A stretch of DNA of 64,000 bases, from NCBI RefSeq assembly GCF_046105845.1, contig NZ_CP151004.1; one strand, written 5' to 3'. The position numbers and the translations under genes were made by a program. The notes under the pieces are model-generated. The model was given only the letters and a program-made list of their open reading frames with translations, was not told the DNA's origin and searched no databases. Each line of letters begins with the position of its first letter. Position 1 is the first letter of the stretch. Origin of the DNA: Escherichia coli (lineage in GTDB: Bacteria > Pseudomonadota > Gammaproteobacteria > Enterobacterales > Enterobacteriaceae). Of the stretch, positions 2,468 through 27,375 are shown piece after piece.

Positions 2468-3706
2468 ATGGCTGACACTCGCCCTGAACGTCGCTTTACG
2501 CGCATTGATCGTCTCCCGCCCTACGTTTTTAATATTACCGCTGAACTGAAAATGGCTGCGCGTCGGCGCGGCGAAGATATTATCGATTTCAGTATGGGTA
2601 ACCCGGACGGTGCGACTCCGCCGCACATCGTCGAAAAATTATGTACGGTGGCCCAGCGCCCGGACACGCATGGTTACTCCACTTCACGCGGCATTCCGCG
2701 GCTACGTCGCGCCATTTCACGCTGGTATCAGGATCGCTACGACGTTGAAATCGACCCGGAATCAGAAGCCATCGTCACTATTGGTTCGAAAGAGGGACTG
2801 GCACATCTGATGCTGGCGACGCTGGATCATGGTGACACGGTGCTGGTGCCGAATCCAAGCTACCCCATTCATATTTATGGCGCGGTGATTGCCGGGGCGC
2901 AGGTACGCTCAGTGCCGCTGGTGGAAGGTGTCGATTTCTTCAATGAACTGGAGCGCGCCATTCGCGAAAGTTATCCGAAACCGAAGATGATGATCCTCGG
3001 CTTCCCGTCGAATCCAACCGCGCAATGCGTGGAGCTGGAGTTCTTCGAAAAGGTTGTGGCGCTGGCGAAACGCTACGATGTGCTGGTGGTCCATGACCTG
3101 GCCTATGCCGATATCGTCTACGATGGCTGGAAAGCGCCGTCAATCATGCAGGTGCCGGGTGCACGCGATGTGGCGGTCGAGTTCTTTACGCTGTCGAAAA
3201 GCTACAACATGGCGGGCTGGCGTATCGGCTTTATGGTTGGCAACAAAACGCTGGTCAGCGCGCTGGCACGTATTAAAAGCTATCACGATTACGGCACCTT
3301 TACGCCGTTGCAGGTGGCAGCGATTGCGGCGCTGGAGGGCGATCAACAGTGCGTGCGCGACATTGCTGAACAGTACAAACGCCGCCGTGATGTACTGGTA
3401 AAAGGGCTGCATGAAGCGGGCTGGATGGTCGAAATGCCGAAGGCTTCGATGTATGTCTGGGCGAAAATCCCGGAACCGTATGCTGCCATGGGCTCGCTGG
3501 AATTTGCCAAGAAGCTGCTGAACGAAGCGAAGGTCTGTGTCTCTCCGGGGATTGGCTTTGGCGACTACGGCGACACGCATGTTCGCTTTGCACTGATTGA
3601 AAACCGCGACCGTATTCGTCAGGCGATTCGTGGAATTAAAGCGATGTTCCGTGCCGATGGTTTACTACCCGCCAGCAGCAAACATATTCACGAAAATGCG
3701 GAATAA
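2468..3706 (+). CDS. alaC: glutamate-pyruvate aminotransferase (PLP-dependent class I aminotransferase)
   Basis: 412-aa ORF starting [21 protein letters not shown]; aminotransferase fold motifs; K-12 synteny. Confidence 0.9.
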
Positions 3707-20227: not shown

Positions 20228-21556
20228 TTAGCGGCCTTTTGCCAGATATTGCTCCATCTCTTCTTCCGGCACCATTCCACCTCCCGTCGCCCACACCAGA
20301 TGAGTGGCATTACGCAGTTGTTCTGCGCTGAAACCGTGCATCTGTTGGTAACTTACTGATGCACACACGCGCTGAGGTCCGGCCATACCCGCCAGTGCCG
20401 AAGGTTCAAGACGAATACCTTCTTCCTGCGCCAGCCAGCCAAGCATGTCATACATGGATTGATCGCTAAGGGTATAGAAGCCATCCAGTAGACGCTCCAT
20501 TGCCCGCCCGACAAAGCCTGATGCGCGACCAACTGCAAGGCCATCCGCTGCGGTAAGGTTGTCGATACCAATATCCTGAACAGAAATCTGATCGTGTAAT
20601 CCTGTATGGACGCCTAACAGCATACAAGGGGAGTGCGTTGGTTCGGCAAAAAAGCAGTGAACATGATCGCCAAATGCCAGTTTAAGCCCGAATGCGACGC
20701 CACCAGGACCACCGCCAACACCACACGGCAGATAGACAAACAGAGGGTTATCAGCATCGACAATACGACCTTGCTCGGCAAATTGCGCTTTAAGACGCTG
20801 GCCTGCGACGGAATACCCAAGGAACAACGTGCGGGAATTTTCGTCATCAATAAAGAAACAGTTCGGGTCAGACTGCGCTGCTTTACGTCCTTCCTCGACG
20901 GCAACACCATAATCTTGCTCATATTCCACGACCGTAACGCCATGGCTGCGCAGTTTCGCTTTTTTCCATGCCCGGGCATCAGCAGACATATGCACTGTCA
21001 CCTTAAAGCCAATGCGGGCGCTCATTATGCCGATTGATAACCCCAGATTTCCGGTTGAGCCCACAGCAATGCTGTATTGACTAAAGAACTGTTTAAACTC
21101 CGGAGACAGTAGTTTGCTGTAGTCATCTTCAGGCGTCAGCAACCCCGCTTCCAGAGCCAGTTTTTCTGCGTGTGCCAGGACTTCATAAATCCCGCCGCGT
21201 GCTTTTATGGAGCCGGAAATGGGCAAATGGCTATCTTTTTTCAGTAACAGTTGTCCGCTGATCGGTTGTTGATATTCCTTTTCCAGCCGTTTTTGCATAG
21301 CCGGAATGGCAACCAGTTCTGATTCAATAATCCCCCCAGTGGCAGCAGTTTCAGGAAATGCTTTTGCCAGATAGGGTGCAAAACGAGATAAGCGCGCATG
21401 GGCGTCCTGAACATCCTGTTCGGTCAGGCCAACATAAGGTAAACCTTCAGCCAATGAGGTCGTGCCAGGATTAAACCAGGTGGTTTCTTTAAGAGCAACC
21501 AGATCCTTTACCAACGGATACTGGGCGATGAGCGAGTTCATTTTAGCGTTTTCCAT
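20228..21556 (-). CDS. dsdA: D-serine ammonia-lyase (D-serine dehydratase), PLP-dependent
   Basis: 442-aa ORF containing SGSIKARGG (PLP-lysine motif). Confidence 0.92.
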
Positions 21557-21573
21557 AGTACGTCTCTTTGCGC

Positions 21574-21792
21574 TTAGATGATAAATGACAGCAGGAATGT
21601 GCCCGCCAGAGCGACGACTGAAGCGATAAATGTCGCTGTCGTATAGTATTTAAATGTTTCATTGAGCGTAGCGCCGCAATATTGCTTCACCAGCCAGAAA
21701 AGCGAGTCTGTAACGATCGTGCAGCCAATCGCACCTGAACCGATAGCAATCGCAATAATTTCCGGGCTGATGTCGGGATACAGCGGCAGCAC
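21574..21792 (-). pseudogene. dsdX: 3' remnant of D-serine permease gene (GntP family), truncated by the csc insertion
   Basis: Only a 72-aa hydrophobic C-terminal segment upstream of dsdA; the reading frame hits an in-frame TAA just upstream of 21792; full dsdX (about 445 aa) and dsdC are absent. Confidence 0.75.
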
Positions 21793-22034: not shown

Positions 22035-23030
22035 ATGGCTTCATTAAAGGATGTCGCACGCCTGGCGGGAGTGTCGATGATGACAGTCTCCCGGGTGATG
22101 CATAATGCAGAATCTGTGCGTCCTGCAACGCGTGACCGCGTATTGCAGGCAATCCAGACCCTGAATTATGTTCCTGATCTTTCCGCCCGTAAGATGCGCG
22201 CTCAAGGACGTAAGCCGTCGACTCTCGCCGTGCTGGCGCAGGACACTGCTACCACTCCTTTCTCTGTTGATATTCTGCTTGCCATTGAGCAAACCGCCAG
22301 CGAGTTCGGCTGGAATAGTTTTTTAATCAATATTTTTTCTGAAGATGACGCTGCCCGCGCGGCACGTCAGCTGCTTGCCCACCGTCCGGATGGCATTATC
22401 TATACTACAATGGGGCTGCGACATATCACGCTGCCTGAGTCTCTGTATGGTGAAAATATTGTATTGGCGAACTGTGTGGCGGATGACCCAGCGTTACCCA
22501 GTTATATCCCTGATGATTACACTGCACAATATGAATCAACACAGCATTTGCTCGCGGCGGGCTATCGTCAACCGTTATGCTTCTGGCTACCGGAAAGTGC
22601 GTTGGCAACAGGGTATCGTCGGCAGGGATTTGAGCAGGCCTGGCGTGATGCTGGACGAGATCTGGCTGAGGTGAAACAATTTCACATGGCAACAGGTGAT
22701 GATCACTACACCGATCTCGCAAGTTTACTCAATGACCACTTCAAATCTGGCAAACCAGATTTTGATGTTCTGATATGTGGTAACGATCGCGCAGCCTTTG
22801 TCGCTTATCAGGTTCTCCTGGCGAAGGGGGTACGTATCCCGCAGGATGTCGCCGTAATGGGCTTTGATAATCTGGTTGGCGTCGGGCATCTGTTTTTACC
22901 GCCGCTGACCACAATTCAGCTTCCACATGACATTATCGGGCGGGAAGCTGCATTGCATATTATTGAAGGTCGTGAAGGGGGAAGAGTGACGCGGATCCCT
23001 TGCCCGCTGTTGATCCGTTGTTCCACCTGA
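22035..23030 (+). CDS. cscR: LacI-family sucrose-operon repressor
   Basis: 331-aa ORF from the ATG at 22035 (MASLKDVARLAGVSMMTVSRVMHN, LacI-type HTH) with periplasmic-binding-protein-like core. Confidence 0.88.
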   Translation: MASLKDVARLAGVSMMTVSRVMHNAESVRPATRDRVLQAIQTLNYVPDLSARKMRAQGRKPSTLAVLAQDTATTPFSVDILLAIEQTASEFGWNSFLINIFSEDDAARAARQLLAHRPDGIIYTTMGLRHITLPESLYGENIVLANCVADDPALPSYIPDDYTAQYESTQHLLAAGYRQPLCFWLPESALATGYRRQGFEQAWRDAGRDLAEVKQFHMATGDDHYTDLASLLNDHFKSGKPDFDVLICGNDRAAFVAYQVLLAKGVRIPQDVAVMGFDNLVGVGHLFLPPLTTIQLPHDIIGREAALHIIEGREGGRVTRIPCPLLIRCST

Positions 23031-23037
23031 TATTATG

Positions 23038-24471
23038 TTAACCCAGTTGCCAGAGTGCTCCATGTTGCAGCACAGCCACTCCGTGGGAGGCATAGAGCGA
23101 CAGTTCCCGTTCTTCTGGCTGCGGATAGATTCGGCTACTCATCACCGTTTCCCCGTCGTTAATAAATACTTCCACGGATGATGTATCGATAAATATCCTT
23201 AGGGCGAGCGTGTCACCCTGCGGGAGGGGAATACTACGGTAGCCGTCTAAATTCTCGTGTGGGTAATATCGCCACAAAACAAGTCGCTCAGATTGGTTAT
23301 CAATATACAGCCGCATTCCAGTGCCGAGCTGTAATCCGTAATGTTCGGCATCACTGTTCTTCAGCGCCCACTGCAACTGAATCTCAACTGCTTGCGCGTT
23401 TTCCTGCAAAACATATTTATTGCTGATTGTGCGGGGAGAGATAGATTGATGCTGCTGGCGTAACGACTCAGCTTCGTGTACCGGGCGTTGTAGGAGTTTG
23501 CCATTGCTCTCTGATAGCTCGCGCGCCAGCGTCATGCAGCCTGCCCAGCCTTCACGTTTTGAGGGCATTGGCGATTCCCACATATCCATCCAGCCGATAA
23601 CAATACGCCGACCATCCTTCGCTACAAAGCTTTGTGGTGCATAAAAGTCATGCCCGTTATCAAGTTCAGTAAAATGCCCGGATTGTGCAAAAAGTCGTCC
23701 AGGCGACCAAATTCCGGGTATTACGCCACTTTGAAAGCGATTTCGATAACTGTATCCCTCGGCATTCATTCCCTGCGGGGAAAACATCAGATAATGCTGA
23801 TCGCCAAGGCTGAAAAAGTCCGGACATTCCCACATATAGCTTTCACCCGCATCAGCGTGGGCCAGTACGCGATCGAAAGTCCATTCACGCAATGAACTGC
23901 CGCGATAAAGCAGGATCTGCCCCGTGTTGCCTGGGTCTTTCGCCCCGACTACCATCCACCATGTGTCGGCTTCACGCCACACTTTAGGATCGCGGAAGTG
24001 CATGATGCCTTCTGGTGGAGTGAGGATCACACCCTGTTTCTCGAAATGAATACCATCCCGACTGGTAGCCAGACATTGTACTTCGCGAATTGCATCGTCA
24101 TTACCTGCACCATCGAGCCAGACGTGTCCGGTGTAGATAAGTGAGAGGACACCATTGTCATCGACAGCACTACCTGAAAAACACCCGTCTTTGTCATTCT
24201 CGTCTCCTGGCGCTAGCGCAATAGGCTCATGCTGCCAGTGGATCATATCGTCGCTGGTGGCATGTCCCCAGTGCATTGGCCCCCAGTGTTCGCTCATCGG
24301 GTGATGTTGATAAAACGCGTGATAACGATCGTTAAACCAGATCAGGCCGTTTGGATCGTTCATCCACCCGGCAGGAGGCGCGAGGTGAAAATGGGGATAG
24401 AAAGTGTTACCTCGGCGCTCGTGAAGTTTTGCTAGTGCGTTTTGCGCCGCATGTAATCGAGATTGCGTCAT
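23038..24471 (-). CDS. cscA: sucrose-6-phosphate hydrolase / invertase (GH32)
   Basis: ORF track 23038..24480; start placed at MTQSRLHAAQ...; GH32 motifs (WMNDPNG, FRDP, WECPD). Confidence 0.9.
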   Translation of the reverse strand: MTQSRLHAAQNALAKLHERRGNTFYPHFHLAPPAGWMNDPNGLIWFNDRYHAFYQHHPMSEHWGPMHWGHATSDDMIHWQHEPIALAPGDENDKDGCFSGSAVDDNGVLSLIYTGHVWLDGAGNDDAIREVQCLATSRDGIHFEKQGVILTPPEGIMHFRDPKVWREADTWWMVVGAKDPGNTGQILLYRGSSLREWTFDRVLAHADAGESYMWECPDFFSLGDQHYLMFSPQGMNAEGYSYRNRFQSGVIPGIWSPGRLFAQSGHFTELDNGHDFYAPQSFVAKDGRRIVIGWMDMWESPMPSKREGWAGCMTLARELSESNGKLLQRPVHEAESLRQQHQSISPRTISNKYVLQENAQAVEIQLQWALKNSDAEHYGLQLGTGMRLYIDNQSERLVLWRYYPHENLDGYRSIPLPQGDTLALRIFIDTSSVEVFINDGETVMSSRIYPQPEERELSLYASHGVAVLQHGALWQLG

Positions 24472-24505
24472 TTTTATCATCCTGGTTAAGCAAACTTGGT
24501 GAATT

Positions 24506-24581
24506 GTTAACGTTAACCTTTATAAAAATAAAGTCCCTTGCTTTCATAAATGCGATGAATATCACAAATGTTAACGTTAAC
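24506..24581. promoter_or_regulatory. cscA-cscKB divergent promoter region with two identical 12-bp palindromes (candidate CscR operators)
   Basis: GTTAACGTTAAC occurs at 24506-24517 and 24570-24581; each is a perfect palindrome. Confidence 0.55.
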
Positions 24582-24686
24582 TATGACGTTTTGTGATCGA
24601 ATATGCATGTTTTAGTAAATCCATGACGATTTTGCGAAAAAGAGGTTTATCACTATGCGTAAGTCAGATGAATTTAAGGGAAAAAA

Positions 24687-25610
24687 ATGTCAGCCAAAGT
24701 ATGGGTTTTAGGGGATGCGGTCGTAGATCTCTTGCCAGAATCAGACGGGCGGCTACTGCCTTGTCCTGGCGGTGCGCCAGCTAACGTTGCGGTGGGAATC
24801 GCCAGATTAGGCGGAATAAGTGGGTTTATAGGTCGGGTGGGGGATGATCCTTTTGGTGCGTTAATGCAAAGAACGCTGCTAACTGAGGGTGTCGATATCA
24901 CGTATCTGAAGCAAGATGAATGGCACCGGACATCCACGGTGCTTGTCGATCTGAACGATCAAGGAGAACGTTCATTTACGTTTATGGTCCGCCCCAGTGC
25001 CGATCTTTTTTTAGAGACGACAGACTTGCCCTGCTGGCGACATGGCGAATGGTTACATCTCTGTTCAATTGCGTTGTCTGCCGAGCCTTCGCGTACCAGC
25101 GCATTTACAGCGATGACGGCGATCCGGCATGCCGGAGGTTTTGTCAGCTTCGATCCCAATATTCGTGAAGATCTATGGCAAGACGAGCATTTGCTCCGCT
25201 TGTGTTTGCGGCAGGCGCTACAACTGGCGGATGTCGTCAAGCTCTCGGAAGAAGAATGGCGACTTATCAGTGGAAAAACACAGAACGATCGGGATATATG
25301 CGCCCTGGCAAAAGAGTATGAGATCGCCATGCTGTTGGTGACTAAAGGTGCAGAAGGGGTGGTGGTCTGTTATCGAGGACAAGTTCACCATTTTGCTGGA
25401 ATGTCTGTGAATTGTGTCGATAGCACGGGGGCGGGAGATGCGTTCGTTGCCGGGTTACTCACAGGTCTGTCCTCTACGGGATTATCTACAGATGAAAGAG
25501 AAATGCGACAAATTATCGATCTCGCTCAACGTTGCGGAGCGCTTGCAGTAACAGCGAAAGGGGCAATGACAGCGCTGCCATGTCGACAAGAACTGGAAAG
25601 TGAGAAGTAA
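24687..25610 (+). CDS. cscK: fructokinase (PfkB/ribokinase family)
   Basis: 307-aa ORF with PfkB signatures (GGAPANVAVG, DSTGAGDAF). Confidence 0.9.
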   Translation: MSAKVWVLGDAVVDLLPESDGRLLPCPGGAPANVAVGIARLGGISGFIGRVGDDPFGALMQRTLLTEGVDITYLKQDEWHRTSTVLVDLNDQGERSFTFMVRPSADLFLETTDLPCWRHGEWLHLCSIALSAEPSRTSAFTAMTAIRHAGGFVSFDPNIREDLWQDEHLLRLCLRQALQLADVVKLSEEEWRLISGKTQNDRDICALAKEYEIAMLLVTKGAEGVVVCYRGQVHHFAGMSVNCVDSTGAGDAFVAGLLTGLSSTGLSTDEREMRQIIDLAQRCGALAVTAKGAMTALPCRQELESEK

Positions 25611-25671: not shown

Positions 25672-26919
25672 ATGGCACTGAATATTCCATTCAGAAATGC
25701 GTACTATCGTTTTGCATCCAGTTACTCATTTCTCTTTTTTATTTCCTGGTCGCTGTGGTGGTCGTTATACGCTATTTGGCTGAAAGGACATCTAGGATTA
25801 ACAGGGACTGAATTAGGTACACTTTATTCGGTCAACCAGTTTACCAGCATTCTATTTATGATGTTCTACGGCATCGTTCAGGATAAACTCGGTCTGAAGA
25901 AACCGCTCATCTGGTGTATGAGTTTCATTCTGGTCTTGACCGGACCGTTTATGATTTACGTTTATGAACCGTTACTGCAAAGCAATTTTTCTGTAGGTCT
26001 AATTCTGGGGGCGCTCTTTTTTGGCCTGGGGTATCTGGCGGGATGCGGTTTGCTTGACAGCTTCACTGAAAAAATGGCGCGAAATTTTCATTTCGAATAT
26101 GGAACAGCGCGCGCCTGGGGATCTTTTGGCTATGCTATTGGCGCGTTCTTTGCCGGTATATTTTTTAGTATCAGTCCCCATATCAACTTCTGGTTGGTCT
26201 CGCTATTTGGCGCTGTATTTATGATGATCAACATGCGTTTTAAAGATAAGGATCACCAGTGCATAGCGGCGGATGCGGGAGGGGTAAAAAAAGAGGATTT
26301 TATCGCAGTTTTCAAGGATCGAAACTTCTGGGTTTTTGTCATATTTATTGTGGGGACGTGGTCTTTCTATAACATTTTTGATCAACAACTCTTTCCTGTC
26401 TTTTATGCAGGTTTATTCGAATCACACGATGTAGGAACGCGCCTGTATGGTTATCTCAACTCATTCCAGGTGGTACTCGAAGCGCTGTGCATGGCGATTA
26501 TTCCTTTCTTTGTGAATCGGGTAGGGCCAAAAAATGCATTACTTATCGGTGTTGTGATTATGGCGTTGCGTATCCTTTCCTGCGCGCTGTTCGTTAACCC
26601 CTGGATTATTTCATTAGTGAAGCTGTTACATGCCATTGAGGTTCCACTTTGTGTCATATCCGTCTTCAAATACAGCGTGGCAAACTTTGATAAGCGCCTG
26701 TCGTCGACGATCTTTCTGATTGGTTTTCAAATTGCCAGTTCGCTTGGGATTGTGCTGCTTTCAACGCCGACTGGGATACTCTTTGACCACGCAGGCTACC
26801 AGACAGTTTTCTTCGCAATTTCGGGTATTGTCTGCCTGATGTTGCTATTTGGCATTTTCTTCTTGAGTAAAAAACGCGAGCAAATAGTTATGGAAACGCC
26901 TGTACCTTCAGCAATATAG
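25672..26919 (+). CDS. cscB: sucrose:H+ symporter (MFS, LacY family)
   Basis: 415-aa 12-TM ORF, LacY-like. Confidence 0.9.
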   Translation: MALNIPFRNAYYRFASSYSFLFFISWSLWWSLYAIWLKGHLGLTGTELGTLYSVNQFTSILFMMFYGIVQDKLGLKKPLIWCMSFILVLTGPFMIYVYEPLLQSNFSVGLILGALFFGLGYLAGCGLLDSFTEKMARNFHFEYGTARAWGSFGYAIGAFFAGIFFSISPHINFWLVSLFGAVFMMINMRFKDKDHQCIAADAGGVKKEDFIAVFKDRNFWVFVIFIVGTWSFYNIFDQQLFPVFYAGLFESHDVGTRLYGYLNSFQVVLEALCMAIIPFFVNRVGPKNALLIGVVIMALRILSCALFVNPWIISLVKLLHAIEVPLCVISVFKYSVANFDKRLSSTIFLIGFQIASSLGIVLLSTPTGILFDHAGYQTVFFAISGIVCLMLLFGIFFLSKKREQIVMETPVPSAI

Positions 26920-27360
26920 ACGTAAACTTTTTCCGGTTGTTGTCGATATCTCCATATCCCTCAACCGGAAAATAGTAATACAAAAATGCTTAGCCCAACT
27001 AATAATCACCTAATCCAAACGCCTCATTCATGTTCTGGTACAGTCGCTCAAATGTACTCCGGATACGCGGTTCGCTGATTTCCAGGACATTGTCGTCATT
27101 CAGCGACCTGTCCCGAGTATCACGGGCCTGCGAATTCATCAAGGAATGCATTGCAGAGTGAAGTATCGAGTCACGCCATATTTCGCTATCAGGATTCTGT
27201 ATGATGGTTACATCGCCCGGCCCAGGGCTGTTTAGTCATCAGCGCTTTCTGACAGTGCTGAGATTTCAACCTGTTGCAGTAAAAATGAGTAGATATAGGG
27301 CAAGTGTGCTGCCAAACCCATCTTTTACGGGGTGAAGGTAGATATTGTTAGAAGGGTATC

Positions 27361-27375
27361 TGGTGTCCCCTGCAG
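27361..27375 (-). repeat. attR core: duplicated 3' end of tRNA-Arg (argW)
   Basis: TGGTGTCCCCTGCAG is the reverse complement of the argW acceptor 3' end CTGCAGGGGACACCA (recalled tRNA sequence). Confidence 0.7.

Follow-up and report, generated by a model that had tools for sequence, protein, structure and literature searches.

Twin 12-bp palindromes between cscA and cscK as probable operators of the sucrose repressor CscR in a conserved cassette with two CRP-like sites

Two identical palindromes lie between the divergent genes cscA and cscK in the sucrose (csc) locus of Escherichia coli. Are these palindromes bound by CscR, the repressor encoded next door, and if so, how could one pair of sites govern two transcription units? 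The locus was studied in a window of 64,000 nucleotides (the whole stretch of DNA that was analyzed). It consists of cscR, cscA, and cscKB and is situated at the argW-dsd hotspot. Between positions 3 and 27375 the window shares 98.75% identity with a collinear E. coli chromosome, whose RefSeq annotation agrees with the gene assignments given here:

20228 to 21556, minus strand: dsdA, followed in the gene order by a dsdX fragment and then by cscR
22035 to 23030, plus strand: cscR, LacI-family repressor (LacI-family profile matches; start as annotated in the collinear genome), convergent with cscA
23038 to 24471, minus strand: cscA, sucrose hydrolase (invertase) of the sucrose-6-phosphate hydrolase family (NCBIfam TIGR01322, 478 bits; RefSeq annotation of the collinear genome)
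24687 to 25610, plus strand: cscK, fructokinase (NCBIfam NF006957, 506 bits)
25672 to 26919, plus strand: cscB, sucrose:H+ permease of the LacY family (oligosaccharide MFS; NCBIfam TIGR00882, 595 bits)

The cscA-cscK spacer (24472-24686) is 215 bp long and has a G+C content of 31%. The earlier note had described two identical 12-bp perfect palindromes here, 64 bp apart, and both exact copies are indeed found in this gap:

24506 to 24517, no strand: proximal putative CscR operator, GTTAACGTTAAC, on the cscA side, 34 nt upstream of the cscA ATG at 24471
24570 to 24581, no strand: distal putative CscR operator, GTTAACGTTAAC, on the cscK side, between two CRP-like sites

The two copies are 64 bp apart from start to start, with 52 bp in between. 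Measured from the cscA ATG, the center of the proximal copy is at 40 bp and that of the distal copy at 104 bp; the distal center is 111 bp from the cscK ATG. LacI-family operators are typically located about 30-140 bp ahead of a regulated start codon, and all three distances fall in this range. Reading and pattern search found no third exact copy in the 64 kb. The same spacer exists in 2,662 of 5,426 complete E. coli genomes. The spacer in the window differs from that of most E. coli by a few substitutions (95-99% identity, 2659 genomes), and both operators are unchanged. An Rfam search of the spacer for RNA elements gave no match at E <= 1.

The sequence GTTAACGTTAAC is a perfect even palindrome whose axis lies on the central CG, and it reads GTTAAC and again GTTAAC on the two sides of that axis. 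The window has 15 perfect 12-bp palindromes, of which no other occurs twice, and 0.005 copies of this one per 64 kb are expected from the base composition. The statistics taken from the window alone are weaker than they appear because the relaxed pattern is not significantly enriched (five matches with two or fewer mismatches against 1.97 +/- 1.5 in shuffled sequences) and because some 12-bp palindrome occurs twice in 13 of 200 first-order Markov simulations. When further CscR sites were sought in the window (e.g., upstream of cscR or dsdA), only three matches with two mismatches were obtained, at 2445, 4400, and 16821. Their number is at chance level, and none is close to cscR or dsdA. The decisive evidence is conservation across species.

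Both the twin palindrome and its reading as a CscR operator are already known. According to PMC11251922 and PMC3938415, Jahreis et al. (2002) described a 12-bp inverted repeat that occurs twice in the cscA-cscK spacer and regarded the two copies as putative CscR operators, and one of these repeats carried a mutation that raised expression (Jahreis et al. 2002, as cited in PMC11251922). In this account, the repeats flank the -35 and -10 elements of cscA, the downstream repeat overlaps the start site, a Crp site adjoins the -35 element, and the 12-bp repeats are conserved in five species (PMC11251922). That GTTAACGTTAAC is the published repeat can safely be inferred, since it is the only 12-bp inverted repeat that the spacer has in duplicate. 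A full-text literature search for the 12-mer returned unrelated primer matches only and no csc paper.

Genetic data come from two further studies. The bidirectional csc promoter is described as having operator sites for cscA and cscKB and two cAMP-Crp sites, and a de-repressing mutation in the putative cscKB operator, which had been reported earlier, was isolated again independently (PMC3938415). CscR represses all three genes in vivo: when cscR is lost in EHEC (the LCV2 deletion mutant), expression of cscA, cscK, and cscB goes up 58-fold, 156-fold, and 28-fold, respectively, and an isogenic strain with cscR deleted shows higher expression of a cscAp-gfp fusion (PMC7486766). The form of the site is also typical of the family. 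An even palindrome with a central CG was found for 1173 of 1303 LacI-family transcription factors surveyed, and CscR is included among the sucrose regulators in that work (PMC4052901). The perfect symmetry of the operators in the window extends over 12 bp only, whereas LacI-family operators are usually 16-22 nt long (PMC4052901). The label "operator" rests on genetics and comparative genomics.

For the comparison across species, a protein-guided scan with CscA was performed using one genome per species, which gave 80 Enterobacterales loci (859 kb) with CscA identities of 54-98%. These loci contain 96 exact copies of GTTAACGTTAAC, whereas 0.05 are expected. With one mismatch or none, 137 sites were found, and 128 of them belong to pairs 62-69 bp apart. 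The palindrome pair is present in 64 of the 80 loci with a CscA homologue. Its spacing is 64 bp in 43 loci, 63 bp in 11, 62 bp in three, and 68-69 bp in seven Proteus loci. The pair is always located directly upstream of an operon including the cscA homologue, while the DNA between the copies has diverged freely. The first gene of the operon downstream of the pair is either cscA (the E. coli arrangement) or the gene of a LacY-family permease that shares about 40% identity with CscB, in which case cscA comes after it. The end of the proximal site is typically about 30-40 bp ahead of the first start codon in the other loci.

A CscR homologue (48-99% identity) exists within the fetched locus in 61 of the 64 loci that have the pair. 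Among the 16 loci that have no pair, four are cut off upstream (L016, L028, L059, and L072), seven retain one good site (Providencia, Morganella, and Moellerella), and five have no CscR homologue in the fetched DNA either (Lonsdalea L040, L042, and L043, as well as L055 and L050); the association between site and CscR is not a clean test, as several loci without a CscR match are incomplete. The recognition helix of the CscR homologues, VS[M/L]MTVSR, is invariant over this range of identity. Mean identity among the homologues is 65% in the N-terminal 60 residues and 61% in the rest, so it is the recognition helix itself that stands out in conservation, which fits an invariant half-site. Taken with the published model and the cscR genetics, this co-occurrence across species supports the other proposal of the earlier note, that the palindromes are candidate CscR operators controlling both units, and we consider it very probably correct.

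Many Enterobacterales have loci that combine a LacY-family permease (only about 40% identity to CscB) with a GH32 hydrolase (54-71% identity to CscA) and a regulator resembling CscR. All of these loci have the cassette of two operators and two CRP sites described below; examples among the loci L007-L081 are L024 (3641-3716), L075 (3635-3710), and L049 (3632-3707). This spread sits oddly with the description of csc as rare outside E. coli (PMC11251922). Another observation concerns Providencia. In L009, L010, and L014 (at about 1651-1726 or 3631-3706), both operators have mirror-image changes at the central CG (GTTAATGTTAAC and GTTAACATTAAC). The CscR homologues of these three loci are the most divergent ones (48% identity), with an unchanged recognition helix.

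What is conserved between the operators, apart from a short TT motif, is a single CRP site, and a second one exists on the cscK side of the distal operator:

24551 to 24566, no strand: inner CRP-like site, TGCGATGAATATCACA, with one mismatch to TGTGAN6TCACA
24592 to 24607, no strand: outer CRP-like site, TGTGATCGAATATGCA, on the cscK side of the distal operator, with a perfect left half and a right half that is weak in the window

Read from the cscK side toward cscA, the cassette thus comprises the outer CRP site, the distal operator, the inner CRP site, the core promoter, and the proximal operator, where the CRP sites and the promoter are predicted. When the 44 loci with 64-bp spacing are stacked without gaps, the consensus is tGTGAt..t.gATCACA, 10 bp, aatGTTAACGTTAACatTtGTGATTAACATCAca, 33 bp in which only cTTt is conserved, and aaaaGTTAACGTTAACAAT. 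The distal operator has the 18-bp palindrome AATGTTAACGTTAACATT as its consensus across species, and the flanks of the proximal operator are asymmetric. The inner CRP position has 8-10 of 10 half-site matches in 53 of the 64 loci. The outer position has 7-10 of 10 in 57 of the 64 and is conserved in the cscK-side alignment as well. The centers of the two CRP sites are 41 bp apart; from the center of the distal operator it is 17 bp to the inner CRP center and 24 bp to the outer one, and from that of the proximal operator 47 bp to the inner one. The outer CRP site is kept even where the upstream neighbor is unrelated and co-directional (Serratia, Yersinia, and Cedecea). Therefore, it is part of the module and does not belong to a divergent promoter alone. 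These alignments suggest that csc-like loci of many genera (Yersinia, Serratia, Rahnella, Klebsiella, Providencia, Proteus, Erwinia, and others) are governed by the same cassette of two operators and two CRP sites. As a whole, the conservation of the cassette is a modest extension of the published comparison of five species and is probably covered by the regulon databases for LacI-family factors, too.

Where are the promoters in relation to these sites? A scan of the spacer for the sigma-70 consensus gave no promoter match, and a literature search for data on the cscA transcription start returned nothing relevant. Since there is no such match, we infer the positions of the operators relative to the promoters from conservation and CRP phasing. 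The candidate elements are as follows:

24648 to 24653, plus strand: candidate cscKB -10 element, TATCAC, within the GTTTATCA.T block
24503 to 24524, minus strand: two candidate cscA -10 elements, TATAAA (24524 to 24519) and TAACAAT (24509 to 24503)

On the cscK side, the block GTTTATCA.T (24645-24654) is the only one conserved from the outer CRP site to the cscK start in seven csc loci of four genera. If TATCAC in this block is the -10 element of cscK, which is plausible, the outer CRP site would be centered near -61.5 and the distal operator near -85. At about -85 a repressor would not block the polymerase directly, and its mode of action on cscKB is therefore uncertain.

On the cscA side, taking TATAAA as the -10 element fits the published layout, in which the -35 and -10 elements lie between the operators. 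The inner CRP site would then be centered at about -46.5, an unusual distance; with the alternative TATTTT, it would be at -41.5. If TAACAAT is taken instead, the inner CRP site would be at -61.5, the -35 element would start with the conserved TT, and the proximal operator would extend over -20 to -9. Directly after the proximal operator, the flanking AAT is retained in 44 of the 64 loci, though it breaks the palindrome. It persists as a TAAcAAT-like sequence where the operator has decayed, and Klebsiella-type loci have TACCAT. This conservation would fit a -10 element overlapping the proximal operator equally well as the published layout, or better. With either choice, part of the sequence required by RNA polymerase at cscA is shared with the proximal operator.

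The mechanism that we propose follows from the palindromes being operators of CscR. When there is no inducer, one CscR dimer would occupy each palindrome. At the proximal operator (24506-24517), which would overlap the -10 element or the transcription start of cscA, RNA polymerase would be excluded. At the distal operator (24570-24581), which is located between the two CRP-like sites, bound CscR would hinder CRP-dependent activation. This would affect the cscA promoter and, on the opposite side, the divergent promoter of cscKB (likely -10 element about 70 bp further on). This interference could come about by competition with CRP, by blocking the alpha subunit of RNA polymerase, or by a contact like that of CytR. 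Inducer (presumably sucrose or a product of it) would free CscR from the DNA, and cAMP-CRP would then drive both units.

A bolder version of this proposal is offered tentatively, as a possibility rather than an expectation. It holds that the operator pair belongs to a cassette of about 130 bp whose order and distances are fixed: a CRP site, 10 bp, an operator, 3 bp, a second CRP site, 33 bp, and a second operator. The distal operator would have evolved to lie between tandem CRP molecules and act by anti-activation, the outer CRP site and this operator would have been taken over later by the cscKB promoter of E. coli, and the true -10 element of cscA-type promoters would be TAACAAT (overlapping the proximal operator, with CRP at -61.5) instead of TATAAA. 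If so, the distal operator would repress by excluding CRP or the alpha subunit of the polymerase, or by a CytR-like contact, and not by blocking the polymerase itself.

Could the two operators act only as an obligatory pair, with CscR on both sites in contact and the 52 bp between them, including a CRP site and the cscA core promoter, looped out as by LacI? The spacing is strongly conserved (64 bp in most loci, and 63 or 62 bp in several others), 64 bp corresponds to about 6.1 turns at 10.5 bp per turn, which places the sites roughly on the same face of the helix, and CRP, whose site lies between the operators, is a DNA bender. However, the fixed geometry of the CRP site and the core promoter between the operators already accounts for a fixed spacing. 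Looping by a tetramer becomes less likely because the alignment of CscR (331 aa) with LacI covers LacI residues 5-329, where CscR stops, so that the C-terminal tetramerization helix is missing, and because the seven Proteus loci with 68-69 bp are about half a turn out of phase. The seven loci of Providencia, Morganella, and Moellerella that have one good site only also speak against an obligatory pair. We therefore regard looping as unlikely.

The identity of the protein is a separate matter. Many LacI-family operators, including the sites of Cra, PurR, and RbsR, have AACGTT at the center, so another regulator (e.g., Cra/FruR, ScrR, or a different LacI-family protein) might bind the palindromes while CscR acts elsewhere or indirectly. 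The searchable literature reports no direct binding of E. coli CscR to DNA (EMSA, footprint, or ChIP), which leaves room for such a protein. Nevertheless, the sites track CscR homologues (61 of the 64 loci with the pair, and no pair in the five loci without CscR), the recognition helix of CscR is as invariant as the site, deletion of cscR and mutation of the operator have the same phenotype, and CscR itself matches the fructose/sucrose repressor subfamily TIGR02417 weakly. It is very improbable that a regulator other than CscR is the one that binds here. A chance or non-regulatory repeat, such as duplicated HpaI sites or the remnant of a mobile element, would draw on the within-window figures only, i.e., on the simulations that duplicate a 12-bp palindrome and on the absence of enrichment of the relaxed pattern. 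Set against this are the exact copies found in the 80 loci, in a constant place and with diverged DNA between them, and recent transfer of one identical segment is argued against by protein identities ranging from 54 to 98%. Duplication by chance or of a restriction site was thus rejected on the basis of cross-species conservation, and its probability is close to nil. CscR at both palindromes, without an obligatory loop, is the reading that we prefer.

The closest known system is the csc regulon of E. coli EC3132 and W (Jahreis et al. 2002; Sabri et al. 2013). It is the same locus with the same gene order, cscR-cscA-cscK-cscB, and the pair of 12-bp repeats, the dependence on CRP, and the repression by CscR are alike; nothing substantive differs from the accounts in PMC11251922 and PMC3938415. 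The scr regulons of pUR400 and Klebsiella are based on a PTS, and ScrR binds the operators O1 and O2 at the scrY promoter, which have 14-bp repeats in contrast to the 12-bp repeats for CscR. ScrR belongs to the FruR/ScrR branch (PMC4052901), a subfamily that CscR matches weakly. In the lac operon, the operators O1 and O3 likewise enclose a CRP site together with the core promoter, and LacI is of the same family as CscR. LacI is a tetramer that loops 92 bp, while CscR has no tetramerization helix and its sites have a spacing of 64 bp.

In CytR promoters (deoP2, cdd, and udp), a LacI-family repressor sits between tandem CRP sites. The distal csc operator resembles this arrangement, as it lies between two CRP-like sites, with centers 41 bp apart compared with about 52 bp in CytR promoters. 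CytR sites are weak and need CRP for binding. The CscR site, in contrast, is a perfect palindrome and is accompanied by a second operator overlapping the promoter. The best NCBIfam match of CscR is CytR, far below the cut-off.

The csc regulon enables E. coli W and engineered strains to use sucrose, a cheap substrate, for growth. At low sucrose it is tightly repressed, a practical obstacle that is usually overcome by deleting cscR. Knowledge of the operators, which were described in 2002 and have been re-found since, is useful for promoter engineering. The rigid geometry of the cassette also raises a testable question of how a dimeric LacI-family repressor and CRP interact.

Several minor features of the locus are worth recording. 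The cscA frame is open for three more codons upstream, to an ATG at 24480 (MIKM...); an AGGA Shine-Dalgarno sequence is better placed for the annotated start at 24471 (MTQSRLH). CscK is named "aminoimidazole riboside kinase" in RefSeq and "fructokinase" by the NCBIfam equivalog (506 bits, cut-off 450), an inconsistency of annotation. The stop codons of the convergent genes cscR and cscA (23030-23038) are 7 bp apart. As this leaves no room for terminators, the two transcripts should overlap. In E. coli UTAK-5 (L084, 3683-5700), an IS100 element of the IS21 family has inserted in the cscA-cscK spacer downstream of the cscK-side CRP site and splits cscKB from its control region.

On the dsd side (20228-21792), dsdA is intact, dsdX is a 219-bp fragment, and dsdC is absent, the classic pattern seen when csc has replaced the D-serine locus. 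Deletions that remove cscR let the cscA promoter read through and reactivate the silent dsdA, on which CscR was concluded to have no direct action (PMC7486766). On the other side, a 153-bp DUF4942 fragment (26999-27151), probably a leftover of an earlier mobile element, exists between cscB and a remnant of argW. Of this tRNA-Arg gene, only the 3' 15 nt are in the window (27361-27375), and ARAGORN detected no tRNA genes in the whole window. Homology to the reference E. coli chromosome ends at 27375, within argW. From 27376 on, the best matches are to a mosaic of prophage genes (portal, PBSX-type terminase, replicative helicase, RecT, KilAC antirepressor, and LexA-family repressor), and the stretch from 27361 to 64000 looks like a lambdoid-type prophage integrated in argW that reaches or passes the end of the window.
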